Source: an uncultured Rhodospirillales bacterium
GTDB lineage: Bacteria > Pseudomonadota > Alphaproteobacteria > Azospirillales > Azospirillaceae
DNA: 64,000 nt
Reading direction: 5' to 3'
Assembly (NCBI GenBank): GCA_903931735.1
Contig: CAIZDL010000192.1
Coordinates: 18,608 to 82,607, forward strand
In this document: piece after piece, positions 459-22,556 of the stretch
How the letters are laid out: each line of letters opens with the position of its first letter
Position numbering within the stretch: the first letter of the stretch is position 1
The notes under the pieces: generated by a model
Seen by the model: only the letters and a program-made list of their open reading frames with translations
What the model was told of the DNA's origin: nothing
The model's database searches: none
Program-made: the position numbers and the translations under genes

Positions 459-824
459 CTAGCCGAGCAATTTCTTGACCACCGCCAGCAACTGATCTTG
501 CTTGAAAGGCTTGACGATCCATCCGGTCGCCCCAGCAGCCTTCCCCTCAGCCTTTTTCGAATCCTCGGACTCGGTGGTCAGCAAAACAATCGGCACAAAC
601 TTGAAGTTCGGCAGCGCCCGCACCTGCTTGATCAAATCAATGCCGTTAAGGTTCGGCATATTCAGATCGGTGACGATCATATCGACCGTCGTGGTCTTAA
701 GGAGAGCCAGTGCTTCCCTACCGTCCTCCGCCTGTACCGTCTCGTAACCGGCTGTTTCCAGCGCGAATGTTACCATCTGACGCACGCTCGCCGAATCATC
801 GACGCTGAGAATCTTCTTCGCCAT
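459..824 (-). CDS. cheY: CheY-like single-domain response regulator (121 aa)
   Basis: MAKKILSVDDSASVRQM...MIVTDLNMPNLNG...GWIVKPF shows the complete REC signature (DD, phospho-Asp, T, K). I chose the internal ATG at 824. The stop lies 13 nt before the cheA start. Confidence 0.9.
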   Translation of the reverse strand: MAKKILSVDDSASVRQMVTFALETAGYETVQAEDGREALALLKTTTVDMIVTDLNMPNLNGIDLIKQVRALPNFKFVPIVLLTTESEDSKKAEGKAAGATGWIVKPFKQDQLLAVVKKLLG

Positions 825-832
825 TCTTACGT

Positions 833-1183
833 CTACTCCTTTCCCCACCAAAATCCGTCTTGCCCCGCGTCGGGTCCGCCGCCATCGACCCCCGGCCGAA
901 AACCGGCCACGACCAACGCCGCCAGCAGCACCCCCGCAGGTGCAGGCGCCAGCGTAATCCGCTTGCCGACCCGTTCGGCACTCCGCCGCGCCGCTATAAT
1001 AAGTTGAATCCCCGCCGCGTCCACTGCATCAAGAGCCAGGGTGTCGAGGGTCAGGCGCTCGCAAGCGGCCAAATCACGCGCCAACTGGTCGCGCACCGCC
1101 TCGGCACAATTGATGGTCAACCCCCCGGAAAGCACCGTCTGCCCACCCGCAGATTTCAGCACGGCAGCAACAGCCTCGTTCAT
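833..1183 (-). CDS. STAS-domain protein of the che operon (anti-sigma-antagonist fold, 116 aa)
   Basis: The ORF in the track is 833..1231. The ATG at 1183 is preceded by GGGAGG at 7 nt. The sequence MNEAVAAVLKSAGGQTVLSGGLTINCAEAVRDQL... resembles the small STAS proteins found upstream of cheY/cheA in alphaproteobacteria. Confidence 0.7.
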   Translation of the reverse strand: MNEAVAAVLKSAGGQTVLSGGLTINCAEAVRDQLARDLAACERLTLDTLALDAVDAAGIQLIIAARRSAERVGKRITLAPAPAGVLLAALVVAGFRPGVDGGGPDAGQDGFWWGKE

Positions 1184-1578
1184 CGGAAAGCCTCCAACGT
1201 CGGTTGCGCACCCGGCCTCGTCACTCTTCATGGACGATCATCGTGGCCTACAGTCGTCAAAGATAGCCTGAGCGTCACAAACTTTACAACAAGCATTTCC
1301 CACTAAACTATACAAAATCATCCTGCCCCGACAATTATCGCACCGCACAATACTCCATAAGCTCACTGAGCAACGAGCTATTTCTTCTCACTACAGCGGG
1401 ATTTACCTGCAAAATCATTACGAGTTTCTTAATAAAGACGTTTCAAATGCCCGCTTTTTTTCCACCACAAGGGAGGACGAATGCCGACACGCTTTGACGT
1501 ACAATTGTTCAATTGCCTTAGGGGACGCGCATCCGTATCATGGCTCAGGAGTCCCGTAACATTGAGGGGGGTATCAAC

Positions 1579-2433
1579 GTGTTGCTTGGCAAAAATCACT
1601 ATAACCGAACCGGCATCGCGCGGTCGGGCTTGGCTGCCATGGTCAGCGTTTCGCTTGTTCTTAGCAGCCTTACCGGATGCGTGACCACACGCGACGATCG
1701 GATCGGAGCCGACGACGGGTCCGACGCCTGCCTGGCCTATGTGGTCGCTCTCGACTCAACCGGCAACTATTTCGCCGAAGATATGATTAAGGGCGCAGCC
1801 ATTGGCGCGCTCGGCGGCGCGTTGATCGGCGGCATTGCGAGCGGCAACTGGCAAGGCGCGGCCATTGGCGCCGTCAGCGGTGCCGCAGTGGGCGCTCTCG
1901 GCGGCTACTGGAAGAGCAAAATGGATCAAGGCAAAGACCAAGCGGTCACCAGCCTGGCTTCCGACATGAACGCCGATGAAGCGCAACTGGACAAGAGCCA
2001 GGCCGCCTTCAAGCAACTCACCGCCTGCCGCCGCGATCAGGCTAAAAAGATCCGGGCGCAGTACACCGCAAAGTCGATCACCCGCGACGAAGCCCAAACC
2101 CGCCTGCGGATGCTGGGAACCCAGGCCCGTAAAGACGTTGATATCCTCAACGCCATTACTGGCAATGCCGATAAGCGCTTGGCCGAATACCAGTACGCCG
2201 CCAATCAAATCGACCCCAACGTTCCGGCACCGTCCGCATCGAACGAGAATTCGAGCAGTTCAAGCAGCTCGAGTGCCGACCGCAAGCCAAACCGTCCCCA
2301 CAAGCCGACACGGACGGGGCCGCCGACCACCCAGGGCTTTGCATCACTTCAGTCAAAAGCATCGACCCTCAAGCAGAACAGCTCCGACTACGCAGCAGAG
2401 TCGAGCGGTTGGGAAAGTGCCAAGCTGGGTTAA
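1579..2433 (+). CDS. Lipoprotein with a glycine-zipper segment, a coiled-coil region and a Ser-rich tail
   Basis: Lipobox LSSLTGC. Gly-zipper GAAIGALGGALIGGIASGNWQGAAIGAVSGAAVGALGG. The in-frame GTG at 1579 is preceded by GAGGGGGG; the track ORF starts at 1540. There is a poly-Ser run (SSSSSSSS) near the C-terminus. Confidence 0.75.
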   Translation: MLLGKNHYNRTGIARSGLAAMVSVSLVLSSLTGCVTTRDDRIGADDGSDACLAYVVALDSTGNYFAEDMIKGAAIGALGGALIGGIASGNWQGAAIGAVSGAAVGALGGYWKSKMDQGKDQAVTSLASDMNADEAQLDKSQAAFKQLTACRRDQAKKIRAQYTAKSITRDEAQTRLRMLGTQARKDVDILNAITGNADKRLAEYQYAANQIDPNVPAPSASNENSSSSSSSSADRKPNRPHKPTRTGPPTTQGFASLQSKASTLKQNSSDYAAESSGWESAKLG

Positions 2434-2493: not shown

Positions 2494-2520
2494 GGGGTGA
2501 CGGCCAATCGCCGTCACCCC
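2494..2520 (+). terminator. Stem-loop downstream of the lipoprotein gene
   Basis: GGGGTGACGGC / GCCGTCACCCC forms an 11-bp stem with a 5-nt loop, followed by TGGCTTTCC (weak U tract). Confidence 0.5.
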
Positions 2521-2647
2521 TGGCTTTCCGCCAGATTGTACGGGCCGTCTGATCATTTCATCAGGCGGATGGTTGCTTGAGTTGGCCGGTTCTTCAACAA
2601 GCTGCGTCATACCGGCGCCTTCGTGCCGGTTTCCGGGAGGGTTGCCG

Positions 2648-5600
2648 ATGTCTGTATTCCGGTTGGGCCGAGTGGGTTTGGCGCTGATTTTATCCCTGAC
2701 ACTCGCCATGGGGCGCTCCGCTCCGGCCGAGGCCGCCGATGGCGCCGCCTGGGTGGAACCACCGTCTGAGCCGTTCTTGCGCATCGAAACCGGGATGCAC
2801 ACCGCGATCATCAATCGAATTTCCGTGGACGCCACTGGGCGATTGGCGGCAACCGCCTCCGACGATAAAACCGTGCGCCTATGGTCTTTGCCGGAAGGGC
2901 GGCCGGTTGGAACGCTACGGGTGCCAATTGGCAATGGCCCCGAGGGCAGCCTTTACAGCGTCGCGCTGTCTCCCGATGGCGCCACCGTGGCTGCGGGCGG
3001 GTTCGTGGGCCAGCAATGGGACGGCCGCCCGTCCCTTTACCTTTTCGATGTCGCAAGCCGGAAGATCAAGGCACGGCTGCCAAAATTACCCAGCGAAATC
3101 CTCCATTTGGCCTTTTCTCCCGATGGCCGGCGGCTGGCGGCGGCCTTTGGCGGCGGCGCCGGATTGATCGTTTACGACATGGGCACCGGTAAAATCCTGG
3201 GGGAGGACCATAACTATAGCAACCAACCGTCAAATTGGGTCGCTTTCGCACAGGATGGACGCCTCGCCACCACCGGCTTTGACGGCAACGTGCGCCTTTA
3301 CGACGCCTCGGTGAAGTTGATCGCCAAGCGCACCCTGCCCGGCGCCAACCGGCCGTTTTCGGTCGCATTTTCACCCGACAATGCGACCTTGGCGGTGGGA
3401 TCGTTCGACACCCCGAAGGTTGATATCCTGTCGGCGGCCGACCTCAAATCCCGCTCCTCACCCGATACCAGCGACCTTAAAGGCGGCAATCTTGCGGCGG
3501 TGGCGTGGATCGAGGATGGACGCCAAGTCTTGCTGGCCGCAGGCGGCACCGCCAGCCGCGACGACGGCTCGCGCATCATCCGGGTTTGGTCGGGGGCCGG
3601 CACCGGGCGCTCGGTCGACATCTCCGCCGCAAAAGACTCGATCAACCAAATCGCGCCGCTCAGCGGGGGCGAGGCGCTGTTTGTGAGCGCCGCCCCGTCA
3701 TGGGGACGGATCGGCGCCGGCCGAAAACTGCTGGAGATAACCAGCCCCACCGCCAACTTCCGCGATATTTCCGCCGGTCGGTTCGCGGTTTCCGAAGATG
3801 GTCTCACCCTCGAATTTGGCATTGCGGCCAAGGGCCAGCGCCCGATGCGGTTGGACCTGCGCGACCATAGCTATGGCCCGGCTCCAAAAGCCGACCCAAC
3901 ACTTGCCAAAGCCATGACCGAGGCATCTGCCTTTAAAATAACAAATTGGCAGCATTCCAACGCGCCAATGATCGGAAACCGCAAGCTTCGGCTGGATGGC
4001 GAAGAAAGAACGCATAGTTTAGCGATCACTCCCGATGGTCAATCCTTTTTGCTGGGCGGTGACTATTGGCTCCGCTGGTTCAACAATACTGGTGCGTTGA
4101 TTGAAAAAGTGGCCATTCCCGCTGCTGCGACCGGCATCACCGTCACCCGATCAGGGACCACGGCGCTGGTCGCGCTCACCGATGGCACCCTTCATTGGTA
4201 TAACCTGGCCGGCGGCAGCAAACCTTTGGAGGAGCGCGCCTCCTTATTCGTTCATGGCGACGGCCAACGCTGGGTTGCCTGGACTCCGGAAGGATTCTTT
4301 GACCATGCTGAAAACGGCGGCAAGGATATGGTCGGATATCACTTCAACAAAGGACGAACCACCACGCCGGAGTTCATCAACTTCGCCCAGGTTTACCAAT
4401 TACTTCATAGCTCAGACTTGGTAATGAAGAAAATTACTGGCGGTTTTGACCCGGAAATTGCCCGAACCTATACCAATATCGGAAATCTGCGCGCCCGCTT
4501 TGAGCGCCATCCGCTGCCAAAGATTGAAAATCTTGAATATTGTTGGACCCAGGCGGGAGGGCAGGAAATGTGCCGTCCGATCAACGAAATTGGCACCCGC
4601 GGCTTTGTGCGCGACACCAGCCGACCAACCGCGCCCGGCAGCACGGTTTCAACCACCCCCTCCCCGGTCGCGGCTGCACTATCGGCGACAGTTCCTGCTG
4701 ATATTTCGCAAGTGAAGTTAAAGTTCAAAATTGTCGACGGCGGCGGCGGAGTGGGCGATATCGGCGTTTTTGTCAATGACCACAACATTGATCGCCAGGA
4801 TATCACCCGCGCATTTCGCCGCGATACTGGGTCCGCTGCTGCCATAACCTCGCCTGGCCCCCAGGGATTCAACCGACTTGTTTCGCTTGACCCGGGCAGT
4901 AACCGCATAGAACTTCGAATTTACGATGGCGCACGCACCGCCTTTGCCAGTTCCGGGCGGATAGAGCTGGTCCGCTCATCACCGCCGACCGAAGGCGGAC
5001 CGCAGCTAGCCCCCGCGAGCAAGCCCCGCCTGTTCGTTTTGGCGGCCGGCGTCGATGTCTACAAAAACCCGGCCTACCACCTGAATTTCCCCGTCGCCGA
5101 TGCCGAAGGGGTAACTGCGGCATTAAAAGACCGGGTGGGTGATCTATATGAAAAAGTATTTGTGCCAACCATTACGCCCAGTCGTGCTGTTGTGTTCGCC
5201 GAGGCAAAAACCGGCACCGCCGTTCTGGCCAACGAAAACGCGAGCCTTGAAATGATCGAAAAGGCATTCAAGGCCTTAACTACCGGTGATATCGTACGTC
5301 CCGCCGATACTGTCGTTATTTATTTGGCCGGACACGGCGTTCGTGAAGACGGTGGCGCCGGAAGCTCTCAGGCTGCTGGCAAATTCTACTTCATCACATC
5401 AAACGTCGACAGCCCCGATACCGTAGCCGGTCAAGCTCTTGGGCAAGATGTTCTGCTTCAACACCTCGTTGAGATTAACGGCAAAAAAGCGCACATTTTA
5501 CTTGTGCTGGATACGTGCCATTCGGGCGCTTTTGCCAAAGGCACCCCAATCGATGCCATCACCAACCTGAACGATGAAGCCGGGATCTCGGTGCTCGCCG

Positions 5601-5875
5601 CCGCCGCTTCAAACCAAGAAGCGCTCGATGGCTACCGACCCCAAGGACGCGGACGGGCCGAGCACGGCGTTTTTGCCTACGCGGTCATCTCGGGCATTGG
5701 CGGCGCTGCTACGGCCGATGAAACCGGGATCATTTACCCCACCTCATTGGCGCGCTATGTTAAAGAGGCCGTGATCAAGCTGGCAGCCGAGGTCAGCCCA
5801 AATCACAAGCAGCAAGCCAAATGGCAACCCCTTGGCGAACAAGACGACTTTCCTTTGGCACGGAAGTTTCGGTAG
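2648..5875 (+). CDS. Exported WD40-repeat / caspase-fold (peptidase C14) protein, 1075 aa
   Basis: ATG at 2648 after GGGAGGG. Signal peptide MSVFRLGRVGLALILSLTLAMGRSAPAEA. WD40-type repeats (DDKTVRLWSL, SPDGATVAAGG, SPDGRRLAAA, DGNVRLYD, SPDNATLAVGS). C-terminal C14 domain with YLAGHG (His codon 5333..5335) and LVLDTCHSG (Cys codon 5516..5518). Confidence 0.85.
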   Translation: MSVFRLGRVGLALILSLTLAMGRSAPAEAADGAAWVEPPSEPFLRIETGMHTAIINRISVDATGRLAATASDDKTVRLWSLPEGRPVGTLRVPIGNGPEGSLYSVALSPDGATVAAGGFVGQQWDGRPSLYLFDVASRKIKARLPKLPSEILHLAFSPDGRRLAAAFGGGAGLIVYDMGTGKILGEDHNYSNQPSNWVAFAQDGRLATTGFDGNVRLYDASVKLIAKRTLPGANRPFSVAFSPDNATLAVGSFDTPKVDILSAADLKSRSSPDTSDLKGGNLAAVAWIEDGRQVLLAAGGTASRDDGSRIIRVWSGAGTGRSVDISAAKDSINQIAPLSGGEALFVSAAPSWGRIGAGRKLLEITSPTANFRDISAGRFAVSEDGLTLEFGIAAKGQRPMRLDLRDHSYGPAPKADPTLAKAMTEASAFKITNWQHSNAPMIGNRKLRLDGEERTHSLAITPDGQSFLLGGDYWLRWFNNTGALIEKVAIPAAATGITVTRSGTTALVALTDGTLHWYNLAGGSKPLEERASLFVHGDGQRWVAWTPEGFFDHAENGGKDMVGYHFNKGRTTTPEFINFAQVYQLLHSSDLVMKKITGGFDPEIARTYTNIGNLRARFERHPLPKIENLEYCWTQAGGQEMCRPINEIGTRGFVRDTSRPTAPGSTVSTTPSPVAAALSATVPADISQVKLKFKIVDGGGGVGDIGVFVNDHNIDRQDITRAFRRDTGSAAAITSPGPQGFNRLVSLDPGSNRIELRIYDGARTAFASSGRIELVRSSPPTEGGPQLAPASKPRLFVLAAGVDVYKNPAYHLNFPVADAEGVTAALKDRVGDLYEKVFVPTITPSRAVVFAEAKTGTAVLANENASLEMIEKAFKALTTGDIVRPADTVVIYLAGHGVREDGGAGSSQAAGKFYFITSNVDSPDTVAGQALGQDVLLQHLVEINGKKAHILLVLDTCHSGAFAKGTPIDAITNLNDEAGISVLAAAASNQEALDGYRPQGRGRAEHGVFAYAVISGIGGAATADETGIIYPTSLARYVKEAVIKLAAEVSPNHKQQAKWQPLGEQDDFPLARKFR

Positions 5876-5896
5876 GTCTCTGCAACGATACAACCG

Positions 5897-7747
5897 ATGG
5901 AGTCAATAATGCGCTGGATGGTTGCCGGACTAACCGCTTTAACTTTTGTGGCTGGAGCCCCAGCCCCAAACGCTTTCGCCGCTGTTAACACCTTTGGCTT
6001 GGTTATCGGCGTCGACGACTACCAGTATATTAGCCCGAAGCTTGAAGGCTCGGTCAACGACGCCACCGATGTGGCAAACGCGCTTCAAAAAGACGGCGCC
6101 CAAGATGTCAGACTATTGCTTGATCAAAAGGCGAGTCGAGATGCGATCATGGGCGCCTGGAATGACCTGATGGCAAAAGTGCAGAAAGGCGACAACCTAA
6201 TCTTTCATTTTGCCGGCCATGGCGGACAGGAACCGGAACATGTCAAAGGCTCCGAGGAGTCAGGCTATGACTCAACTTTACTTCTCGCGGGATTTTCGCT
6301 AAAGGGTCCCGGCACCTACGAACGCATCGTGGACGATGAATTGGGAGCGATGTTCCAACGCGCCTCCGACGCGGGCGTCAACCTGCTGGTGGCAATCGAT
6401 GCCTGCCATTCCGGCACCATGACCCGCGCCTTCAACAACCCATCGATCGCAAAGCCCCGTGTTCGGGCGGTGACCTATCTGCCGATTGCCGCAAGTGAGG
6501 ATCGATTGCCGTTGATAGACCCGGCTTGGTCAAAAATTCCCAAAGAACTGCCCCATGTGTTTTACTTCGGGGCGGTCCATGACCACGAAGAGGCCCCCGA
6601 GATTGCAATTGGCGGCCAACAACGGGGCGCCCTTAGCTGGTCGCTGGCATCGGGTTTACGGGGCGCCGCCGATGCCAACAAAGACGGGGTGATTACGGTC
6701 AGCGAATTGCGCGACTATATCATCGACCAAATCCAGATCAAAGTTGAAGGGCAACAGCATCCATCGATCATTCCCACCAAGTCCCGTGGGGTTACGTTTG
6801 TCGACAGAGGCGAGTTTTCGATTTTAAGCCCCCAAGCACTCGAGATTGTTAAGGTCGCGTCAAAGGATGGGCTCACCGACTATGCCAAACAATTACTGGC
6901 ACAAGCGGTTAAGGAGGGTCCGGGAGATTCCGGAACTGACAAACTTCAAGCTATTATGAAGGCTATTCAAGAAAAAGCCAAGAGCAATGCCCAACAGATC
7001 CCGTCAACCGCAATCCAGATGGCAATTATCAATACCTCACTCGGAGCCATGCCCGAACTGAGGGCACCCCTGACCAATGTTCAAATCGTCGAACCTGCAA
7101 GCAGGCCGCTCCTGACATGGGATGTGGGGAAACGAAGGGTTCTGTCTTCGCTCGGCGATATCGTCGCCGATTTTTCCAGCAGCGCCAGCACAACGGCCGA
7201 TGACACACGGGCCTTTAAGCGTCAGGTCAATACCAGCGAGTCCAAGCAAACGATTGGCGCTGCAACCGATGTGCCGATGGCTCAGGCGGTTATCGACAAA
7301 TGGCACCTTACGGAATTGATTAAGACGCTCGCCGAGAAGCAAAGCCTCGGCATTTCGCTCCAACCCGGTGACGCTATTCATACCCTCGGGGAGAAAGTAA
7401 TGTTTTCCGTCGAGGGCCAGAACCAACCCTACTTAACGTTATTTAACCTTGCTTCCGATGGCACCGTAAACTTTATTTACCCACTCGCTACCGCCGAGGT
7501 TAAGGACCCGCTCAACATCCCCCTCGGGCGGCCCTATGATGTGCCTCTTGTGGTTGCCCCCCCCTATGGGGCCGATCACCTTGTGGCGATCGCCAGTGCC
7601 GAACCGCTTGTCGAGCTCCATAAAACCCTAACGGAGATTGACAACAAGCCAACAGCGCGCGCCCTCGAAACCGCTCTACGCACACAACTCAACGGCCGTA
7701 CCTACCAAATCGGCATTCACGGCTCCTACACGGCCAAGCAGCGCTAG
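5897..7747 (+). CDS. Exported caspase-fold (peptidase C14) protein with a C-terminal DUF4384-like domain, 616 aa
   Basis: Signal peptide MRWMVAGLTALTFVAGAPAPNAFA. FGLVIGVDDY...FHFAGHGG (His 6218..6220) and VAIDACHSG (Cys 6404..6406). The C-terminal GDAIHTLGEKVMFSVEGQNQPYLTLFNLASDGTVNFIYP matches my recall of DUF4384. It starts 22 nt after the preceding gene. Confidence 0.85.
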   Translation: MESIMRWMVAGLTALTFVAGAPAPNAFAAVNTFGLVIGVDDYQYISPKLEGSVNDATDVANALQKDGAQDVRLLLDQKASRDAIMGAWNDLMAKVQKGDNLIFHFAGHGGQEPEHVKGSEESGYDSTLLLAGFSLKGPGTYERIVDDELGAMFQRASDAGVNLLVAIDACHSGTMTRAFNNPSIAKPRVRAVTYLPIAASEDRLPLIDPAWSKIPKELPHVFYFGAVHDHEEAPEIAIGGQQRGALSWSLASGLRGAADANKDGVITVSELRDYIIDQIQIKVEGQQHPSIIPTKSRGVTFVDRGEFSILSPQALEIVKVASKDGLTDYAKQLLAQAVKEGPGDSGTDKLQAIMKAIQEKAKSNAQQIPSTAIQMAIINTSLGAMPELRAPLTNVQIVEPASRPLLTWDVGKRRVLSSLGDIVADFSSSASTTADDTRAFKRQVNTSESKQTIGAATDVPMAQAVIDKWHLTELIKTLAEKQSLGISLQPGDAIHTLGEKVMFSVEGQNQPYLTLFNLASDGTVNFIYPLATAEVKDPLNIPLGRPYDVPLVVAPPYGADHLVAIASAEPLVELHKTLTEIDNKPTARALETALRTQLNGRTYQIGIHGSYTAKQR

Positions 7748-7774
7748 GCCCCAAGCAACGCAATCACACCCAAC

Positions 7775-7800
7775 GTCAGCCAGCGCCTTCGCTGGCTGAC
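7775..7800. terminator. Hairpin between convergent genes (possible bidirectional terminator)
   Basis: GTCAGCCAGC (7775..7784) pairs with GCTGGCTGAC (7791..7800): a 10-bp perfect stem with a 6-nt loop. It lies between the stops at 7747 (+) and 7831 (-). Confidence 0.5.
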
Positions 7801-7830
7801 ACCCCGATAAACCCCGAGCCCCGAACGCTG

Positions 7831-8160
7831 CTACTTACAAACGTTCACGATATTCCGCGCGGTTACCACCGTTTCCCGGCCGCTATTGACACCGCCGACG
7901 TTCATCGTACAATCCCCCTTCCGGGCGTTCCCCATATGAACGAGCGTGTCGGAGGTCGGGTCGTAAGAGTTCCCCCCACCGGTGTCGTTACTGTTCATGC
8001 CGCCCGTGGTCCCATATTGCCTCGCCTTGACAGCGTTGACGGCGGTATTTCCTGAGTTGGTCAGATGTGTGGGGTTATTGATGTCCCCTGCGTAAGCCAC
8101 CCCACCGCTAAGCATGAACGCCGCGATGAGAGCCATCAGGGGTCGGGTGCAGCTATACAT
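7831..8160 (-). CDS. Small secreted Asn/Gly/Thr-rich protein (109 aa), member of the local paralog family
   Basis: GGAGGA lies 5 nt before the ATG at 8160. Signal peptide ...MLSGGVAYA. Mature part NSGNTAVNAV...GDCTMNVGGVNSGRETVVTARNIVNVCK has a Cys pair near the C-terminus. Confidence 0.75.
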   Translation of the reverse strand: MYSCTRPLMALIAAFMLSGGVAYAGDINNPTHLTNSGNTAVNAVKARQYGTTGGMNSNDTGGGNSYDPTSDTLVHMGNARKGDCTMNVGGVNSGRETVVTARNIVNVCK

Positions 8161-8370
8161 TACAGTCCTCCATCAGAGTTTGACGAGATGATTAGAGCAC
8201 ATCTCCAAGATAATAGGCGATGCCGCCCGAAAAGAAACATCCGGGAACGATGCCCCGCTCTAACAACAAAACATATGCCTATTTCTCGAGCCGCGATAAG
8301 CAAGCTGTCGCTGGTGAGCCTGCCCAACCCATGGTATCCTGTCGCCTATCGAACTGAACAGGAGGGTGAT

Positions 8371-8676
8371 ATGAAACCCGCGACCTGCATTTGCGCCATA
8401 GTGGCCCTTGCCATCCCGTTGCTCCCGTTGGGCCACGCCCAGGGCCAAACGGCGAGCCAAAATATTACCATCAACTCCATTGGTGAGGACAACAGCACCT
8501 CGTTCCAGAGTGGAATCGCCAACGACAGCCAAGTCGTCGGCATCACCATAATCAATAATGAGATATGGATCGACGGCGAAAAAGTCCCGCGCGGTGCCAC
8601 CAAATTTACCGGCCGCTCGGGGAAAAACTACCGTATCGAACGAGTCGGCGGCGCCATCCAAGTTCGGGACGAGTAA
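8371..8676 (+). CDS. Small secreted protein (101 aa)
   Basis: The ATG at 8371 is preceded by GGAGGG (8361..8366). Signal peptide MKPATCICAIVALAIPLLPLGHA. Mature N-terminus QNITINSIGEDNSTSFQSGIAND resembles the NTTINA motif of the neighbouring small proteins. Confidence 0.7.
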   Translation: MKPATCICAIVALAIPLLPLGHAQGQTASQNITINSIGEDNSTSFQSGIANDSQVVGITIINNEIWIDGEKVPRGATKFTGRSGKNYRIERVGGAIQVRDE

Positions 8677-8695
8677 TCGCCCCCCATACCAACCA

Positions 8696-8724
8696 CCGCC
8701 CGCGCGGCTCGACCACGCGGGCGG
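8696..8724. terminator. Hairpin between convergent genes
   Basis: CCGCCCGCG (8696..8704) pairs with CGCGGGCGG (8716..8724): a 9-bp GC stem with an 11-nt loop. It lies between the stops at 8676 (+) and 8790 (-). Confidence 0.4.
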
Positions 8725-8789
8725 CATTGTCGATTGCCCGCTGGCGCAAACACCACAACCATGGCGCGACCACCTGGAAACAGCCATGG

Positions 8790-9377
8790 CTAGCGGCACC
8801 CCCCTCCCCCAACGGCGATGGTATTAACACCCTGAGCGTTGCTGGTGGGGTCGCCAGACCGGTCGACAACCACCACATTGCCCACCGTTCCCAGTGACAC
8901 CGTGGCACTCGTGCACGGACGACGGCCGCCATCGCCGTCCGACCAAGACCGCGCCCGATCCATGGCAGTGTCCAACGGACGCTGACTATCCAACCCGCCC
9001 GGCGGCGTCCCGGGCAAAATCACCAACGTATTATTCCCGCTTCGATTGCCATCTTTGCCTTGGGATTGCGCCTTCGCACGCAGACGGTTGCGAATCATCG
9101 CCTCCCGGTTTTTTTCCGCTGCCGCCTCGGCGGCCGAGCCCTCCGGCGCAATAATTATAATGTTGGGAACCGTCCCACGATTCGGGTCCCCATACATCCG
9201 CGCCCGGGCCTCGTTATCGATTCCCGCCTCCCGATTTACCTGCCCCGGACTGGGTGAGGCCGAAGCCTCACCCGACCCCAGAGGGACAACGATCAACTCG
9301 CCAGCAAAGGCAACGCCACAAACAAACGTCAGCAACCCCGCCAGTTGGACAAATGCCATTTCAATTTTGATCGCCAT
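8790..9377 (-). CDS. Secreted protein (195 aa); its C-terminus is related to the small repeat-protein family
   Basis: The ATG at 9377 is preceded by GGGAGG at 5 nt. Signal MAIKIEMAFVQLAGLLTFVCGVAFA. The C-terminal CTSATVSLGTVGNVVVVDRSGDPTSNAQGVNTIAVGGGGCR shares the GVNTIAVG motif and the terminal Cys pair. The mature N-terminus ELIVVP resembles EIIVAP of ORF 13147..13494. Confidence 0.7.
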   Translation of the reverse strand: MAIKIEMAFVQLAGLLTFVCGVAFAGELIVVPLGSGEASASPSPGQVNREAGIDNEARARMYGDPNRGTVPNIIIIAPEGSAAEAAAEKNREAMIRNRLRAKAQSQGKDGNRSGNNTLVILPGTPPGGLDSQRPLDTAMDRARSWSDGDGGRRPCTSATVSLGTVGNVVVVDRSGDPTSNAQGVNTIAVGGGGCR

Positions 9378-9394
9378 CCAAGCCTCCCGTGAGT

Positions 9395-9422
9395 AATCGG
9401 GGCGGACCATTCCGCCCCGATT
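9395..9422 (-). promoter_or_regulatory. Strong intercistronic stem-loop between the CsgG-like gene and the downstream gene
   Basis: AATCGGGGCGGA (9395..9406) pairs with TCCGCCCCGATT (9411..9422): a 12-bp perfect stem with a 4-nt loop. There is no U tract, and the SD of the next gene follows immediately. Confidence 0.5.
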
Positions 9423-9427
9423 TCACA

Positions 9428-10915
9428 TTACTGCACGGTTATGTCGAGCCGCGACGTGGAAACATTGGGATTGGCCGCCCGGAAGATCCCATCAATCTCT
9501 TCGAGTGAGCCAACCGCCAACCTTGTCAGATCTTTTTCTTTCAACTTGGCCGGCAAGGGGACCTCCGACTCGCTCGCCAAGCACGAGACAACCTCGTGAC
9601 CGGCCTTATCAAAGCGGATTTTTACCGGCTGCTGCGGCGCCGACAAAGGCACCATCCGGCTACTCACATAGGCGTTCGGCTGGAAGCGGTTGGGGAACAA
9701 GCGCGCAATCGTGCCGTCCGCATCCTGATAGTAGCAGTAGAGGAACGAATTGCGCCCCAGATCGACCCTGGCGCTGAGGATGGAATTCGGCTCATACGTC
9801 GGGTTCGCGCCACGATCCGAAAGCACCGTAACCGGCACCAGCGTCTTGGTAACAGTCACCGGCGGCGGACGGCGGGTGTCGTCGGCAACCGGAGCTTCAT
9901 CGTCCAACAAGGCGAAATACAGCTCGAAATTAGTCTGGCCGTTCGCGATTAAGCCATTGCTGGCCTGATAGCGGCCAATCGCCTCGCGGGTCGCCGAATC
10001 AAGCTCGCCGTTCGCAGAACCCTGATAAATATTCGTGGCCGACAGCTTGCGCTGAACAAAGCTTACTTTGTCCTTCAGGCCCATCGCGTCGTACCATTCG
10101 CGCGCCTGCTCCCGCAGTTTTGGGTTGCTCTTCTCGATCTGCAAGCATTTCCAATACGGCGTATGGGAGAACTGGCCGACCATTTCGATCGCACCCAGTT
10201 CAATAAGTGCGCGCACCGCGGCACCAAGCCCTTCCGACGTATTAAACGAAATATTGATGCTAAGGCCCATCTTACCAATCTTGCCGCCCGCCTCACCTGA
10301 GCGACCAAGCCGGACCACCGCCATAGTATTACTGGAACCAGCATCGGAAATGATTTGGCGCGATACGGTCTCGCCAATATTCATATCCAACCCAACCAGC
10401 GAAACAATCTGGTCTTTCGAGATACCGAGATCGGCGAAGGGGGTTGATATCGCCCCGCCGAGTTGGCTTTCCAAGGCATTGTCATCCAACTGGGTGATGG
10501 CACCACGAATATAATATGATGGCACCTTATAACCAGCACCCGACGCCCGCTGCGCATCGATGAAGAAGCTGGCATTCAGTGGGTCATAATCAATATAGGA
10601 AAACGCTTTTGACTTCCGGGACATCAGGTTGAGCGCCCTGATCAGCATTTCTTTAGTGCCGACCGAAACTTTTTGGGTCGAATCTGTAATGCCGGCAGTC
10701 GTGATTGTGATATCATGCTTGCCGTAAGTCATCATCAAATTGTCCATGCACTGCAAGGCCGGCGTAAAGCTGGTGAAGGTCTTGCTGGCTGGTGTCTTCG
10801 GCGCGGCTGCAAGCGTCGCCGTATCCGGGTCTGGCGTCACGCAACCGACCACCATGCCCGCTGCAATCAGACATGCGGCAAGCTGGCGAGCCCTCTTCTT
10901 AAATGTTGGGTTCAT
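9428..10915 (-). CDS. Lipoprotein fusing a CsgG-like domain, a peptidoglycan-binding (PG_binding_1-like) domain and a DUF4384-like domain, 495 aa
   Basis: ATG at 10915 with GGAGGA upstream. Lipobox AAGMVVGC. YYIRGAITQLDDNALESQLGGA, SKDQIVSLVGLDMNIGETVSRQII and NTSEGLGAAVRALIELGAIEMVGQ align by eye with E. coli CsgG (IMVEGSIIGYESNVKSGGVGA, QLDQIAVNLRVVNVSTGEIL, SNEPVMLCLMSAIETGVIFLI). VQRKLSATNIYQGSANGELDSATREAIGRYQASNGLIANGQ looks like PG_binding_1. SARVDLGRNSFLYCYYQDADGTIARLFPNRF looks like DUF4384. Confidence 0.8.
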   Translation of the reverse strand: MNPTFKKRARQLAACLIAAGMVVGCVTPDPDTATLAAAPKTPASKTFTSFTPALQCMDNLMMTYGKHDITITTAGITDSTQKVSVGTKEMLIRALNLMSRKSKAFSYIDYDPLNASFFIDAQRASGAGYKVPSYYIRGAITQLDDNALESQLGGAISTPFADLGISKDQIVSLVGLDMNIGETVSRQIISDAGSSNTMAVVRLGRSGEAGGKIGKMGLSINISFNTSEGLGAAVRALIELGAIEMVGQFSHTPYWKCLQIEKSNPKLREQAREWYDAMGLKDKVSFVQRKLSATNIYQGSANGELDSATREAIGRYQASNGLIANGQTNFELYFALLDDEAPVADDTRRPPPVTVTKTLVPVTVLSDRGANPTYEPNSILSARVDLGRNSFLYCYYQDADGTIARLFPNRFQPNAYVSSRMVPLSAPQQPVKIRFDKAGHEVVSCLASESEVPLPAKLKEKDLTRLAVGSLEEIDGIFRAANPNVSTSRLDITVQ

Positions 10916-10960
10916 GGATACCAAGGTCCTCCGTTGTTGGTCGCGCTCCAATCCTGACCG

Positions 10961-11923
10961 TCAGGGCGAACGCGAACGCTCCTTTTGAAAAAATCGGCTC
11001 GGCGGCGCCCCCGCCCAGAACCGGCTCACTAAACCCTCGACTTCCCCCACCGTCAAACCAACCATAGCAGGGCTAAAAACGTCATGGGAAGGTGTATGGA
11101 TCAGATACGCCTGTGTCTCGTTAATCATCAGGTCGCCATTTTCGGGATCATACCCCTTACCGGCGAGAAACTTCCGAAACGCGGCCCGCTCACTCTCGGT
11201 TAGTCCCCTCGCCCAAAAATCCCGGCAATATTCCGAGTAGGCTGGGTTGGTATAATACTCGCCATGAGAAATCTCATGGTGAAGAATAGCCTTGCGAAGT
11301 TGGGGTGTAATAGCAGCCTGACCCGATTTCTTGCGAACAGCAACCGATCCGCCCCCACTCTGTGGAATTGAAATAATAACTCGCTCAGGTGGGACCGGGG
11401 TGTAGAACTCAAACTTGCGCTCCATCACCCCTTTAGCAATGAGAAAATCACGAAGGCCAATCTCATCGTTATTTAAATCGATTTTCTCGTCACTGGCGAT
11501 TGTATAAAACTTGGCTAAGTCAACACTGCGAAAATCATTACCGTATGCGTAAGTTGCGAAACCTTTGCCCGATGCCGTCATCAGGCCTTCCAACTGTGTG
11601 TCGGTCAACACATGTTCGCGTTCCCCGCCCTGACGCTCGATAAGGGCGAGGATGCGGCTAAACATCCGCCCTTGCTGCTCAAGCTCCGGAAAATCAAGGA
11701 TAAAGACCGCCGGATTACCGGCAACGACGTGAATGGCCAACTGCCGACTGTGAAACGACTCAAGCGCCGCCACACTGGCCGCCATCCGCACCTCGGCATC
11801 AAACGCCCAGGCTCCCCGACACTCAAAAACGCCAACCAGAAAAGCCGTGGCCGCGACACCAACCGCCGCGGCGAGCCCCGCGCCACCACAACCAGCGAAT
11901 ACGCGGGGACCTCGCCTCGACAT
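10961..11923 (-). CDS. Membrane-anchored hypothetical protein with an HExxH motif (possible metallohydrolase), ~320 aa
   Basis: The track ORF 10961..11950 starts at a GTG; an ATG at 11923 has GAGG upstream. N-terminal hydrophobic anchor AGLAAAVGVAATAFLVGVF. Motif ILHHEISHGEYY (H-E-I-S-H). I recognise no family. Confidence 0.6.
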   Translation of the reverse strand: MSRRGPRVFAGCGGAGLAAAVGVAATAFLVGVFECRGAWAFDAEVRMAASVAALESFHSRQLAIHVVAGNPAVFILDFPELEQQGRMFSRILALIERQGGEREHVLTDTQLEGLMTASGKGFATYAYGNDFRSVDLAKFYTIASDEKIDLNNDEIGLRDFLIAKGVMERKFEFYTPVPPERVIISIPQSGGGSVAVRKKSGQAAITPQLRKAILHHEISHGEYYTNPAYSEYCRDFWARGLTESERAAFRKFLAGKGYDPENGDLMINETQAYLIHTPSHDVFSPAMVGLTVGEVEGLVSRFWAGAPPSRFFQKERSRSP

Positions 11924-11978
11924 GAGCCTCACCAAATTTTGCGACCACACCCAGGACGCACCAAACGAAACGCGCCGA

Positions 11979-12695
11979 TCAGCCTTTCAATTCGAACTGA
12001 ACACGACGATTGGAGGGATCGCGAGGGCTCGCGCCATTGAGCGGCTGGCTTGGCCCTTTCCCAACGGCGGTAAGACGCGACCCTTCAAGACCATATTTTT
12101 GCATCAAAACATCGCGGACAGCATTGGCCCGCGCCATCGAAAGCTCCATGTTCCGAGCATAGACACCGCTCGCATCGGTATGACCCTCGATTGTCAACGA
12201 GTATTGCTTCTCTTCCGTCAAGATCTTGGCGATACCATCCAGAAACGCCTCGGACCCCGGCCGCAAAGACGCCGACCCGACATCAAACTGAATCCGCATC
12301 GCGACCTGTTTGCCGCCACCCGATTCCTGACTGCTCGAAGACGCCGCTGGCCGTGCTGGCCGCGGCCGTGACGCCGACGAAGGCTGTTGACGACGGGGTT
12401 GCTGACGTGCGGCCGGCGGCGAATCAGAGTCATCGGAGGCGGATGAGGCTGACGGCGCCGCAGGAGCGGCAGGGGCCGCCGGAGCAGCAGGGCCATCAAT
12501 CTGAATGCTGCGAGTCCGCACGGCGGGCTTGTGAGTCATGCCCAACGCATCGCGCAGCTCATCGACGCTCGGCGGGGCATCGAATACCTTGACACTCTCA
12601 GCATGAGCGGAAAGTCCCAACAAGAACACAACCGAGGCAAAACCAATAGTCGCGTGGATAAGCCTGGATCGGCGGCCTGTTAGTCTGCTCATCAT
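11979..12695 (-). CDS. OmpA-family peptidoglycan-binding protein with a Pro/Ala/Ser-rich linker
   Basis: Signal ...FLLGLSAHA. Linker PAAPAAPAAPAAPSASSAS. OmpA_C motifs: IQFDVGSASLRPGS...LTIEGHTDASGVYARNMELSMARANAVRDVL...NRRVQFEL. Confidence 0.85.
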   Translation of the reverse strand: MMSRLTGRRSRLIHATIGFASVVFLLGLSAHAESVKVFDAPPSVDELRDALGMTHKPAVRTRSIQIDGPAAPAAPAAPAAPSASSASDDSDSPPAARQQPRRQQPSSASRPRPARPAASSSSQESGGGKQVAMRIQFDVGSASLRPGSEAFLDGIAKILTEEKQYSLTIEGHTDASGVYARNMELSMARANAVRDVLMQKYGLEGSRLTAVGKGPSQPLNGASPRDPSNRRVQFELKG

Positions 12696-12789
12696 GACGT
12701 TACCCCTTCATAAAGATTCGCCCCGCGGGGCACTGTTCATACCGGCAAAATCTTAAGTCTGCTCCAAACCTTAGGTCTGGGCCTAAACC

Positions 12790-13101
12790 TTAGTCGCACT
12801 TGCCCGACGACCCGATATTGATGCACCCCTTGCGACCGTGACCGGTCACAATGTTATCGACGTTCTTCACATCGACCGTCACCGAAGTCGGCCCCCTGGT
12901 GCTTTCATCGATCACACCAATCCGCGTGTTGGCGGTATTGCCAGTCCCGGCCGCGATCGTGTTGACATTCCGTGCGGTGGCATCAATGTGCGTCGTCCCC
13001 TTTATCTGGACGCCGCCCGACTGCTGGGCCAACGCGGAGGTCCCCGCAACCAGTGCCAAAGACACCACCATGCCCCCGAGAACCATAGTTGAGCGACGCA
13101 T
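12790..13101 (-). CDS. Small secreted repeat protein (103 aa), paralog family
   Basis: ATG at 13101 with GGAGAA upstream. Signal MRRSTMVLGGMVVSLALVAGTSALA. VQIKGTTHIDATARNVNTIAAGTGNTANTRIGVI is a repeat homologous to that of ORF 13619..13951. The C-terminus GRKGCINIGSSGKCD has a Cys pair. Confidence 0.75.
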   Translation of the reverse strand: MRRSTMVLGGMVVSLALVAGTSALAQQSGGVQIKGTTHIDATARNVNTIAAGTGNTANTRIGVIDESTRGPTSVTVDVKNVDNIVTGHGRKGCINIGSSGKCD

Positions 13102-13146
13102 AGTGTTCTCCATATTTGAGCAAAACATTAACCAATCAAAGCCAAA

Positions 13147-13494
13147 CTACCGCGAGAGCAAAATGATTGTTTGGTGATTGGGTGCACTGGTCCCCCGCCG
13201 AAGATCTTCCGCGTGCCACAATGACCGGCTGACATTACTCTGGCTGGAGCGCAACGCACCAGAGCTACCGCCACCTCCACCCGGCAACGGCGCCAGCAGC
13301 GGCGTCTGGGGGTAATAAAGGATGGTCGACGGCACCGCCAGCGCAGACGAATGGACCACCAGGGGGATACCAATCCCCTCACCCGGCGCCACAATGATCT
13401 CTGCGCGGGCAGGCAGGATCGCGACCCAACCCAACGCGACGAAACCGACCAATCGGGCCGCACCCGAAATCAGGAGACGACAAACGCGTTTCAT
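13147..13494 (-). CDS. Small secreted protein (115 aa)
   Basis: The ATG at 13494 is preceded by GGGAGG at 7 nt. Signal MKRVCRLLISGAARLVGFVALGWVAILPARA. The mature N-terminus is EIIVAPGEG, and there is a Gly run PGGGGGSSG. Confidence 0.65.
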   Translation of the reverse strand: MKRVCRLLISGAARLVGFVALGWVAILPARAEIIVAPGEGIGIPLVVHSSALAVPSTILYYPQTPLLAPLPGGGGGSSGALRSSQSNVSRSLWHAEDLRRGTSAPNHQTIILLSR

Positions 13495-13570
13495 GACCAC
13501 GCCTCCCACCCATTATAAATGAGCCCAACACGTGCCATTATCAAGCAAACTACTATCAAGTAAACGACCC

Positions 13571-13610
13571 GGAGCCGGGCAACCTCGCTAAAAGCGCGCT
13601 GCCCGGCTCC
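13571..13610 (-). terminator. Stem-loop immediately after the first small-protein gene (partial terminator or attenuator candidate)
   Basis: GGAGCCGGGCA (13571..13581) pairs with TGCCCGGCTCC (13600..13610): an 11-bp stem with an 18-nt loop. It lies 8 nt downstream of the stop at 13619 and before the next gene in the same orientation. Confidence 0.45.
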
Positions 13611-13618
13611 AGTGCTGC

Positions 13619-13951
13619 TTACTTACCAATCCCACCAACGGTGGTCTTGGCCTTGTTGTTCTGCCCAACTGCGGTGGTGTTCACATCAACCGCAGTGGCG
13701 TTGATCGTGGTGTTGCCCTGAATCTGGGTGCCGCCACCGATGGCGCCAACCGCAGTTTCCGCAGTGTTACCCTGCCCAATGGCGGTGGTGTTCAGATTCC
13801 GGCCACTGGCGTTAATCGTCGTGTTGCCCTGAATCTGTACCCCGTCCGGATTGGTGCTCGACTGCATCCGAACGCCGCCCGCTGACTGCGCAAAAGCGGC
13901 ACCAGCCAAGGCAACGACGGCAACAGCGGTGAGGACTGCAAGCTTACGCAT
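13619..13951 (-). CDS. Small secreted tandem-repeat protein (110 aa), candidate major subunit of the family
   Basis: GGAGG lies 7 nt before the ATG at 13951. Signal MRKLAVLTAVAVVALAGAAFA. Two ~36-aa repeats: VQIQGNTTINASGRNLNTTAIGQGNTAETAVGAIGGG and TQIQGNTTINATAVDVNTTAVGQNNKAKTTVGGIGK. Confidence 0.8.
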   Translation of the reverse strand: MRKLAVLTAVAVVALAGAAFAQSAGGVRMQSSTNPDGVQIQGNTTINASGRNLNTTAIGQGNTAETAVGAIGGGTQIQGNTTINATAVDVNTTAVGQNNKAKTTVGGIGK

Positions 13952-14135: not shown

Positions 14136-14999
14136 TTAACCAAGGGGTGGATCGCCGGAATCGGCATCAAAAACCACCCGCTCAGCGCCAGAAAGTACAG
14201 TAAACCTTTTTCCCCGCGCCCGCCCGATCAAGGTTAAGTTTACTTGCCGCGCCAGTTGAACCCCCCATGCTGTAAAGCCTGAGCGTGATACAAGAATTGG
14301 CAACCCCATTCTTACCGTCTTTATCACCATTTCGCTGGTCAACCTGCCCGTGGTGTAAAATATTTTGTCATCTGGATCGATAGATCGACGCGCCATCGCC
14401 CCCGCAATCTTGTCAACGGCATTGTGACGCCCAACATCTTCCATAAACAACAGGGGTTGATCGCGACAGCAAAGAACGCAACCATGAATAGCGCCGGCGG
14501 CACTATAGAGACTGGGCGTAGCCGTAATTCGGCTCGAAATAGCGTAAAGCCAGCTCGCGTGGATGCGTGCGGACTCCGATAATTTGGCCTGCGCAAAATT
14601 TTCCAGCACATCGCCAAATGCTGTGCCCTGCGCACAGCCTGAAGTCAGCGTCTTGCGCTTCAGTTTGGCCTCAAAGTCTGTGCGCCGCCCGGTTCGGACC
14701 ACCACCGCCTCAACCTCGGCATCATAGTCGATGCCGGTAATGGCGTCGTTGGGGCCAATCATGTTTTGGTTGAGCAAGTACCCCAACGCCAACTCTTCAA
14801 CATAGTCGCCGATGGTCATCAGCGTGACGATTTCCTGACCATTGAGGAACAGCGTCAGCGGCCGTTCAACCACCACCGGCAGCTCGACCGCCTGCCCGGT
14901 TTGATCGATACCGGTCACACGCTCGGTCAACCTCGGGTCTTCTGGATCGGGCTGAATGACATAAGGGGTCACGGGTCCGGCTCCGCTGGCTATGAACAC
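14136..14999 (-). CDS. fdhD: Formate dehydrogenase accessory sulfurtransferase FdhD
   Basis: PLTLFLNGQEIVTLMTIGDYVEELALGYLLNQ, EDVGRHNAVDKIAG, and TGRLTSEMVIKTVRMGLPILVSRSGFT are typical of FdhD. The start is uncertain. I chose the in-frame GTG at 14999 (287 aa); the track ORF extends to 15233. Confidence 0.85.
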   Translation of the reverse strand: MFIASGAGPVTPYVIQPDPEDPRLTERVTGIDQTGQAVELPVVVERPLTLFLNGQEIVTLMTIGDYVEELALGYLLNQNMIGPNDAITGIDYDAEVEAVVVRTGRRTDFEAKLKRKTLTSGCAQGTAFGDVLENFAQAKLSESARIHASWLYAISSRITATPSLYSAAGAIHGCVLCCRDQPLLFMEDVGRHNAVDKIAGAMARRSIDPDDKIFYTTGRLTSEMVIKTVRMGLPILVSRSGFTAWGVQLARQVNLTLIGRARGKRFTVLSGAERVVFDADSGDPPLG

Positions 15000-15077
15000 C
15001 GATTGACTCGGCTCCTGTCCCCTCGCACACTTCAACCGGGGTTTCAACCATGGCGGCAAACGGTGAGAACAGGCAAC

Positions 15078-19418: not shown

Positions 19419-19430
19419 ACGCCCCGGCCC

Positions 19431-21134: not shown

Positions 21135-21249
21135 TGCTGTTTTCTCCCCTTATGTCAGCCCGCTATCCGAGCACGCTCTGTCAGCTCAGGCGGGTCATTT
21201 TGGCTGGGAGTGTACGCCGGAGCCCTCTCTTCTCCCAGAGTTTCTTTGG

Positions 21250-22521: not shown

Positions 22522-22556
22522 CGACATCGGCACCGAGACAAACATCGGCAACAACG

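Follow-up and report, generated by a model that had tools for sequence, protein, structure and literature searches.

Whether proteases of the caspase fold can work in the bacterial cell envelope is the question raised by two neighbouring open reading frames, ORF1 and ORF2, in a 64,000-nucleotide stretch of DNA from an uncultured Rhodospirillales bacterium of the Azospirillaceae (assembly GCA_903931735.1, contig CAIZDL010000192.1, positions 18,608 to 82,607 of the forward strand), which is called the window below. The few bacterial caspase homologs that have been studied are cytoplasmic and are discussed in connection with cell death or defence. In contrast, both proteins of the window carry a predicted export signal, and the family of ORF1 would place the same chemistry in the envelope. 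It is very probable that ORF1 and ORF2 are exported, catalytically competent envelope proteases that form a conserved module. The complete package, which also includes periplasmic residence and tethering by an outer-membrane lipoprotein encoded just upstream, is put forward with moderate confidence.

ORF1 (2648..5875, plus strand; 1075 residues, intact, ATG start) comprises a signal peptide, tandem WD40 beta-propellers, a helical linker, a beta-sandwich and a caspase (C14) domain. ORF2 (5909..7747, plus strand), also intact, comprises a signal peptide, a metacaspase-like C14 domain, a middle domain and a DUF4384 domain; it has 612 residues from the ATG at 5909 or 616 residues from an ATG at 5897 (5897-7747). 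This agrees with an initial annotation of the locus, which had read the pair as WD40-C14 and C14-DUF4384. Peptidase_C14 (PF00656) exceeds its gathering score of 21.4 bits in both proteins (ORF1, E 1.2e-6, 28.8 bits; ORF2, E 1.8e-15, 57.7 bits), WD40 is matched in ORF1 (E 4e-20) and DUF4384 in ORF2 (PF14326, 7385..7606, plus strand, E 1.5e-7, 31.8 bits versus a cut-off of 27). The DUF4384 region is modelled confidently and is mostly beta.

The His/Cys dyad motifs and codon positions quoted in the initial annotation proved exact. In the caspase domain of ORF1 (residues 795-1060; 5030..5827, plus strand), YLAGHG begins at nucleotide 5321, with the CAC codon of His896 at 5333-5335, and DTCHSG at 5510, with the TGC codon of Cys957 at 5516-5518. 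In that of ORF2 (p20 and p10-like part; 5990..6778, plus strand), FAGHGG begins at 6209 and includes the His codon CAT (6218-6220), and DACHSG begins at 6398 and includes the Cys codon TGC (6404-6406). Alignment of 86 full-length relatives of ORF1 shows that H896, G897, D955, C957 and D818 are invariant. Among 56 relatives of ORF2, G103, G105, D164 and D51 are invariant, H104 is conserved at 90% or more and C166 is found in 98%. The dyad, which had been described as intact in the two proteins, is therefore invariant or at least 90% conserved in both families.

Structural comparisons point in the same direction. The p20 region of ORF2 matches solved structures already by sequence (phmmer; Yca1, 4f6o, E 1e-12; GSU0716, E 2e-9; TbMCA2, E 1e-5). 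A Foldseek search with its AlphaFold model (predicted local distance difference test, pLDDT, 87.3; predicted template-modelling score, pTM, 0.88) returns GSU0716 (3bij) first, with E 9e-12, then MALT1, Arabidopsis metacaspase 4 (AtMC4), Trypanosoma brucei TbMCA2 and animal caspases (to 1e-6), so that the superposition on metacaspases that had been suggested for checking the fold comes out positive for ORF2. In ORF1, whole-chain Foldseek is dominated by the WD40 propellers. Its caspase domain was compared with the ORF2-family domain by hhalign (99.8% probability, E 2.8e-28), which puts AGHG and DxCHSG in register; in the AlphaFold model, this domain is of alpha/beta type and has His896 and Cys957 among the final residues of two long strands that follow each other. 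This profile match and the strand order of the model support a caspase-type placement of the dyad in ORF1. As judged from their sequences, ORF1 and ORF2 are caspase-fold proteins (C14, clan CD) with an intact His/Cys dyad and predicted activity.

What would such enzymes cleave? In the metacaspase TbMCA2, the S1 pocket is made of Cys92, Asp95, Ser156 and Asp211, and the two aspartates accommodate a basic P1 residue (PMC4357240, PMC6426788). D51 and D164 of ORF2 align to Asp95 and Asp211 (HMMER alignment), and D818 and D955 of ORF1 are, via hhalign, the equivalents of D51 and D164; all four are invariant within their families. Since the S1 pockets of both proteins thus appear acidic and of metacaspase type, ORF1 and ORF2 are predicted to cleave after Arg or Lys, like metacaspases and orthocaspases, and not after Asp. 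Regarding calcium, D121, D142 and D143 of ORF2 align to Asp173, Asp189 and Asp190 of the TbMCA2 Ca2+ site, the fourth residue (Asp220) lying outside the alignment, and ORF2 is probably Ca2+-dependent. An EF-hand-like loop, DANKDGVITVSEL, follows its caspase domain and gives a weak match to EF-hand_5 (E 0.0015, below cut-off). With orthocaspases and metacaspases (MEROPS C14B, such as Microcystis MaOC1, T. brucei TbMCA2 and yeast Yca1), the pair has in common the caspase-hemoglobinase fold, both motifs (His-Gly and Asp-x-Cys-His-Ser-Gly) and the two acidic S1 aspartates; in ORF2, three of the four Ca2+-site aspartates of TbMCA2 also have aligned counterparts. Unlike TbMCA2, ORF1 has no acidic Ca2+-site insertion in the hhalign comparison.

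The question of export depends on where the two proteins begin. A Shine-Dalgarno-like GGGAGG, read from the sequence (2636..2641, plus strand), stands 6 nucleotides 5' of the ORF1 ATG. A TTG at 2573 was considered as an alternative start and rejected: homologs begin at the ATG at 2648, and it is this ATG that the Shine-Dalgarno-like sequence precedes. ORF2 more likely begins at the ATG at 5909 than at that at 5897, because GGAG is found 5 nucleotides upstream, an identical database protein (P0121) has 612 residues and homologs begin with MRWM or MRxI. The intergenic gap is therefore 33 nucleotides (21 if translation begins at 5897). The two genes had been described as 22 nucleotides apart; their shared orientation and proximity hold, but this figure corresponds to neither start.

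From these starts, both proteins show the parts of a cleavable Sec signal ending in AxA, as had been proposed. ORF1 begins with MSVFRLGRVGLALILSLTLAMGRSAPAEA followed by AD, with predicted cleavage after APAEA; its signal peptide (residues 1-29; 2648..2734, plus strand) has two basic residues (R5 and R8) ahead of the core LALILSLTLAM (core hydrophobicity score 2.56) and A-E-A at the cleavage site. ORF2 begins with (MESI)MRWMVAGLTALTFVAGAPAPNAFA followed by AV, MESI being the additional residues of the 5897 start; its signal peptide (5909..5980, plus strand) has R2, the core MVAGLTALTFVAGA with a modest hydrophobicity of 2.06, and A-F-A at the cleavage site. When a basic n-region, a hydrophobic h-region of 10-15 residues and small residues at -3 and -1 are looked for, they can be recognized in both. 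Neither protein has a twin-arginine motif, which led us to reject export by the Tat route, and ORF1 was rejected as a lipoprotein itself, having no Cys in or after its signal peptide. The export call combines a hydrophobicity and charge heuristic with conservation in homologs. By this heuristic, signal-peptide-like N-termini occur in 97 of 120 ORF1 homologs and 47 of 57 ORF2 homologs, and in none of nine cytoplasmic enzymes and regulators encoded in the window. Among the exceptions, many look like gene-calling errors: they begin within the conserved mature region or are plainly over-extended at the N-terminus.

It is highly improbable that the hydrophobic N-termini are not export signals, or that the true starts lie downstream of them, so that ORF1 and ORF2 would be ordinary cytoplasmic orthocaspases. 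Such a reading could appeal to the heuristic nature of the call and to the modest core of ORF2; moreover, to our knowledge, characterised orthocaspases lack signal peptides. Against it, the hydrophobic character of the N-terminus is conserved, while its sequence is not, across proteins that are 33-77% identical, and conserved sequence sets in at once behind it, with the motif EPPxxPFLRIETGxHTA directly after the predicted cleavage site in the ORF1 family and the first caspase strand, GLVIGIDDY, directly after the cleavage-site region in the ORF2 family. A start beyond the hydrophobic segment would be implausible in either protein: in ORF1, no Shine-Dalgarno sequence precedes the next in-frame ATG (M21, nucleotide 2708), and in ORF2 the first Met past the hydrophobic segment is about 80 residues in, so that a start there would delete the first strand. 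Cysteine usage also argues against a cytoplasmic location. The cysteine content of the exported candidates is 0.16-0.28%, versus 0.9-2.3% for eight of the nine cytoplasmic controls of the window, the ninth having none; in the ORF2 family the median number of Cys per protein is one, namely the catalytic residue, and ORF1 has three in 1075 residues, the catalytic one and the pair C632/C642. This usage fits an oxidising compartment. Finally, the operon partner of ORF1 is a lipoprotein with a conserved lipobox. An extracytoplasmic location, as initially suggested, is the best prediction for both proteins.

If ORF1 is exported, what precedes its protease domain? According to the AlphaFold model (pLDDT 89.8, pTM 0.88), the signal peptide (1-29) is followed by propellers (43-578), a helical linker (579-620), an all-beta region (625-776) and the caspase domain (795-1060). 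The WD40 region (2774..4381, plus strand) fits two propellers; the best Foldseek matches to the N-terminal half are double propellers, 2ymu (E 8e-25) and Aip1 (1nr0), over about 560-650 aligned columns, and Aip1 is described as two seven-bladed propellers. The all-beta, sandwich-like spacer (4520..4975, plus strand) is delimited by the secondary structure of the model and has at its start the C632/C642 pair, which is kept in about 75% of the 86 homologs. The high pTM suggests that the domains would pack together. Beta-propellers as such are not unusual in the periplasm, with TolB, BamB and cd1 nitrite reductase as examples, and this qualifies the suggestion that a periplasmic WD40 propeller N-terminal to the protease would be an unusual arrangement. 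Propellers that are joined to, or work with, a protease are also known from prolyl oligopeptidase, tricorn and Apaf-1/caspase-9, where they can gate or recruit substrates, and Apaf-1 (3shf) is among the Foldseek matches of the ORF1 propellers. These systems differ from ORF1, since they have another catalytic fold or topology and are cytoplasmic, and since the WD40 and caspase parts of the Apaf-1 system are separate polypeptides.

The composition of the locus bears on the envelope hypothesis in another way. The initial annotation had described a two-gene unit. The pair is real, but the unit is larger, as the most conserved partner of the WD40-caspase gene is not ORF2 but the gene immediately upstream of ORF1 (1540..2433, plus strand), which encodes a glycine-zipper lipoprotein of 297 residues, predicted to be in the outer membrane and distantly TagQ-like. 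This protein matches Gly-zipper_YMGG in Pfam (E 1.1e-9) and has the lipobox LTG-C47, a lipobox being present in 65 of 69 homologs; within its family the lipid-modified C47 and the pair C64/C163 are invariant. It also matches the NCBIfam model NF041250 (VI_TagQ) with E 1.2e-18 and 67.5 bits, over positions 8-206 of the 301 of the profile, as do 24 of 25 diverse relatives (best E 2.9e-21). Against solved structures, only weak glycine-zipper matches were obtained, to SlyB and an OmpA-family protein (E > 0.1), and no match was found in PADLOC. NCBI names for such lipoproteins are 'YMGG-like glycine zipper-containing protein', 'SlyB' and 'SH3 domain-containing protein', and many of them have a C-terminal SH3_3 domain. 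At that place, the C-terminal third of the window protein (residues ~225-297) is a low-complexity tail rich in Ser, Pro, Lys and Arg (SSSSSSSSADRKPNRPHKPTRTGPP...). If disordered, such a basic tail might plausibly serve as a substrate of an Arg/Lys-specific protease.

Is this arrangement peculiar to one genome? A scan of species-representative genomes gave at least 578 relatives of ORF1, from which 80 loci were kept, 74 of them with enough flanking sequence. A lipoprotein homolog lies directly upstream of the WD40-caspase gene on the same strand in 58 of these 74 loci; in some cases there is no gap between the called ORFs, or they share 4 nucleotides. Independent look-ups found the pairing also in Azospirillum, Contendobacter and Stellaceae, while one acidobacterial locus lacks it. 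The tight linkage of the lipoprotein and WD40-caspase genes thus extends across bacterial classes. In 18 of the 74 loci, a full-length ORF2-type gene is a neighbour, in tandem downstream in 8 and divergent upstream in 10. In four loci, an OmpA-family gene stands immediately upstream of the ORF2-type gene and abuts or overlaps its start. The module also has extended versions, which include OmpA-family genes and stand-alone DUF4384 genes; the locus of an Azospirillaceae metagenome-assembled genome (L019, 4794-14750) encodes a lipoprotein, a WD40-caspase, an OmpA-family protein, a caspase, a protein in which DUF4384 occurs twice, and a caspase-DUF4384 protein. Such caspase islands were seen in related genomes at L019 and at three further loci (L050, 9090-14771; L017; L085).

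The family is large. When the C-terminal 496 residues of ORF1 (linker, beta-sandwich and caspase) were searched against 1.84 billion cluster representatives, 1,195 proteins (50%-identity clusters) were retrieved at E <= 1e-10 and 6,592 at E <= 1e-3. The best matches are mostly 950-1,200 residues long and match at their C-terminal end, and so have the same architecture. Hosts include Azospirillaceae, Acetobacteraceae, other Rhodospirillales, Magnetococcales, Competibacteraceae, Methylococcaceae, Gallionella, Desulfococcaceae and Acidobacteria, and NCBI names the relatives 'caspase family protein' or 'WD40 repeat protein'. That the three-gene unit recurs across hundreds of bacterial species argues for a real cell-envelope protease system, not a one-off.

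How might the module work? TagQ is an outer-membrane lipoprotein that works with the periplasmic protein TagR (COG1262) in the threonine-phosphorylation pathway of the Pseudomonas H1 type VI secretion system (T6SS; PMC13584744). The window pair resembles TagQ and TagR in that a predicted outer-membrane lipoprotein and a partner with a predicted export signal are encoded adjacently; it differs in that the partner is a protease, not of TagR type, and in that no TagS/T, PpkA or T6SS genes are nearby. We take COG1262 to correspond to the FGE-sulfatase fold. In fusions with bacterial caspases, FGE-sulfatase is one of the most frequent domains (PMC3501461). By analogy, it can be proposed that the lipoprotein, once exported by Sec and cleaved by signal peptidase, would settle in the inner leaflet of the outer membrane and dock the propeller-caspase there, as TagQ interacts with periplasmic TagR (PMC13584744). 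The propellers of ORF1 would then select a protein partner or substrate, and the enzymes would perform limited, Arg/Lys-specific proteolysis of envelope proteins, ORF2 being targeted by its DUF4384 domain and, in some genomes, with the help of an OmpA-family protein. The role of the module would be regulated proteolysis in envelope surveillance, remodelling or damage signalling, and not the execution of cell death in the cytoplasm.

Several points weigh against this proposal. Some concern the lipoprotein. Its 67.5 bits fall far short of the 300-bit equivalog cut-off of NF041250, and it is therefore TagQ-like, not TagQ; part of the similarity comes from the low-complexity glycine zipper. No tagR, tagS, tagT, ppkA or T6SS genes were found among the window genes examined (to ~35 kb) or in the related loci inspected. 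The interaction of lipoprotein and protease is proposed from gene order and analogy alone, and in the window a 214-nucleotide gap with a strong hairpin separates the two genes. Others concern the proteases. Export is called from a heuristic and conservation, and the N-terminal helices could be uncleaved anchors. In addition, when the ORF1 caspase domain was compared directly by sequence with solved structures, no meaningful match was obtained, and the analysis identifies no substrate. Lastly, a catalytic thiol would need protection in the oxidising periplasm, a difficulty that L,D-transpeptidases manage.

Sec signals on both proteins would also suit proteases that are secreted past the outer membrane or displayed at the surface, and act on other cells, host or plant tissue or environmental proteins, in toxin, nutritional or fratricidal roles; the lipoprotein would then assist secretion or anchoring, or confer immunity. 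Other secreted proteases of clan CD are known, such as gingipains and clostripain. In addition, extracellular or fratricidal roles have been proposed for signal-bearing metacaspases (PMC3501461), and many hosts are soil or rhizosphere bacteria (Azospirillum, Acetobacteraceae). Nevertheless, this explanation is considered unlikely. The loci examined contain no type I, II, V or IX secretion system genes and no recognisable C-terminal secretion signals. The recurrent partners (the lipoprotein, OmpA-family proteins, SH3_3 proteins) are all envelope proteins, and they face the periplasm, the OmpA-family members as peptidoglycan-binding proteins. Moreover, the compact propeller-caspase model of ORF1 would be expected of a regulated enzyme, not of a broadly degradative one.

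The presence of two caspase-fold enzymes in one locus, and of up to three in L019, also brings to mind an envelope suicide or anti-phage (abortive-infection) device, in which the lipoprotein or the propellers would sense damage or phage and a two-step caspase cascade (ORF2 and ORF1) would destroy envelope proteins and kill the cell. TagQ itself is a membrane-damage sensor in Pseudomonas (PMC13584744), and the PADLOC model PDLC02987 ('caspase') matches with E 4e-18 and 8e-11, as does NF047832 (caspase_w_EACC1). The combination of WD40 and caspase further recalls apoptosome-type logic. However, these matches to defence libraries cover the bare caspase domain alone and lie below the family cut-off (43 versus 140 bits); being generic and sub-threshold, both in PADLOC and for the EACC1-type NCBIfam model, they led us to reject membership of a known defence system. 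The module also lacks any partner of the kind seen in conflict systems, such as an NTPase, TIR or nuclease. The flanks consist of housekeeping genes and differ between genomes, with a nearby integrase at the Contendobacter locus only, and within Acetobacteraceae and Azospirillum the family is widespread by vertical descent, unlike a patchy defence island. A suicide or defence role is therefore regarded as distinctly unlikely. A related idea, a periplasmic device of apoptosome type, is quite improbable too. The TagQ-like lipoprotein would sense outer-membrane damage caused by T6SS attack, phage or antimicrobials and release or activate the tethered propeller-caspase, which would form with a second, Ca2+-dependent metacaspase a two-step cascade directed at envelope proteins and lead to repair signalling or altruistic lysis. 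If true, this would be the first caspase cascade known outside the cytoplasm.

The preferred reading, that of an envelope protease module, can be set against what was already known. N-terminal helices, probably signal peptides, were noted in many prokaryotic metacaspases by Asplund-Samuelsson et al. (2012; PMC3501461), who classed 98 of 671 metacaspases as membrane proteins and predicted 30 to be extracellular. In the same catalogue, the accessory domain met most often is WD40 (10.9%), with FGE-sulfatase in fifth place (4.9%); a single operon may contain up to three metacaspases, 14 metacaspase operons include OmpA, and surface or fratricidal roles are speculated on. A secreted caspase-YARHG protein, A5ECX2, was reported from Bradyrhizobium (PMC3355149), and Tat-like signals were described on cyanobacterial pseudo-orthocaspases (PMC6426788). 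Exported caspase homologs are thus not new as a category. The rarity that the initial annotation attached to the pair was overstated in this respect, as exported homologs were catalogued in 2012 and the family is large; it stands insofar as our literature search for periplasmic, secreted or extracellular caspase homologs found no characterised member.

The locus shares predicted export, multi-metacaspase operons with OmpA-family genes and the WD40 accessory domain with the 2012 catalogue and with A5ECX2. Those two sources (PMC3501461, PMC3355149) give architecture counts, and the order signal peptide, propellers, beta-sandwich and caspase together with a TagQ-like lipoprotein was not found there; nor did the literature searched describe the propeller-caspase architecture of ORF1 or its glycine-zipper lipoprotein partner. 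Unlike the orthocaspases and metacaspases described so far, ORF1 and ORF2 carry cleavable-type signal peptides, and the tandem propellers of ORF1 are N-terminal, whereas WD40 is C-terminal in described architectures. GSU0716 of Geobacter sulfurreducens (3BIJ), the best structural match to ORF2 (template-modelling score 0.65 on target), is a structural-genomics C14 protein with a single domain of 285 residues, without DUF4384, which ORF2 has, and without known partner genes. What this analysis contributes is the definition of the module, that is, a TagQ-like lipoprotein and a propeller-caspase, with or without a metacaspase-DUF4384 protein, an OmpA-family protein and a stand-alone DUF4384 protein. 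The prediction of a basic P1 specificity from the aligned pocket residues is a further contribution.

If tethering is true, caspase-fold proteases would be linked to outer-membrane surveillance. DUF4384 alternates with FGE-sulfatase on one bacterial Ser/Thr kinase family (bioRxiv 10.1101/2025.01.12.632604), and tethering would help to explain why these two domains recur with bacterial caspases and with Ser/Thr kinases (PMC3501461; bioRxiv 10.1101/2025.01.12.632604). Should the two proteins be ordinary periplasmic processing proteases, they would still correct the common view of prokaryotic caspase homologs as cytoplasmic enzymes. The family occurs in culturable and partly genetically tractable bacteria (Azospirillum oryzae, A. 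melinis, Belnapia, Roseomonas, Roseospira), and the TagQ-like lipoprotein, as a defined candidate partner, makes experiments on localisation, interaction and substrate discovery straightforward.

As to transcription signals, a scan for consensus promoters and terminators gave nothing informative. Two unusually stable 11-bp hairpins border the caspase genes. The first (2494..2520, plus strand) lies in the gap between the lipoprotein gene and ORF1, where the segment 2434-2560 folds with -51.4 kcal/mol (z = -3.2; none of 200 shuffles as stable). It has no proper T-run, so it may be a partial terminator or attenuator, or an mRNA-stabilising element, without full termination. The second (7775..7800; strand unassigned), also without a T-run, lies between ORF2 and the convergent minus-strand gene 7831-8160, in a segment (7748-7830) that folds with -23.6 kcal/mol (z = -4.7), and is probably a bidirectional terminator that ends the unit.

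Beyond it, a minus-strand cluster of exported proteins (7831-13951) converges on ORF2. It encodes a 507-residue lipoprotein with PG_binding_1 and DUF4384 (9428-10951) and a very weak HfaB/CsgG-like match (E 2.4e-6, 27 bits, cut-off 300), an OmpA-family protein (11979-12695) and, between these two, a 329-residue ORF with a hydrophobic N-terminus (10961-11950) that matched nothing in Pfam, NCBIfam or PADLOC. Three small signal-peptide-bearing proteins rich in G, N, T and Q (7831-8160, 12790-13128, 13619-13951) matched no family, and the last of them contains IQGNTTINA twice. The cluster may be a fibre secretion system of curli- or holdfast-anchor-like type. A functional link with ORF1 was rejected: apart from the OmpA-family gene, the cluster genes do not recur beside ORF1 homologs in 85 loci, and the adjacency is therefore local.

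The outer flanks consist of unrelated housekeeping and regulatory genes. Upstream, 459-1231 (minus strand) encodes a CheY-like receiver and a STAS-domain protein. Downstream, 14136-24735 encodes FdhD, two MoeA paralogs, one of them fused to a PBP-like domain, a NuoF-like subunit and a molybdopterin oxidoreductase, which probably form a formate-dehydrogenase-type cluster; LigA and NadE are encoded further downstream.

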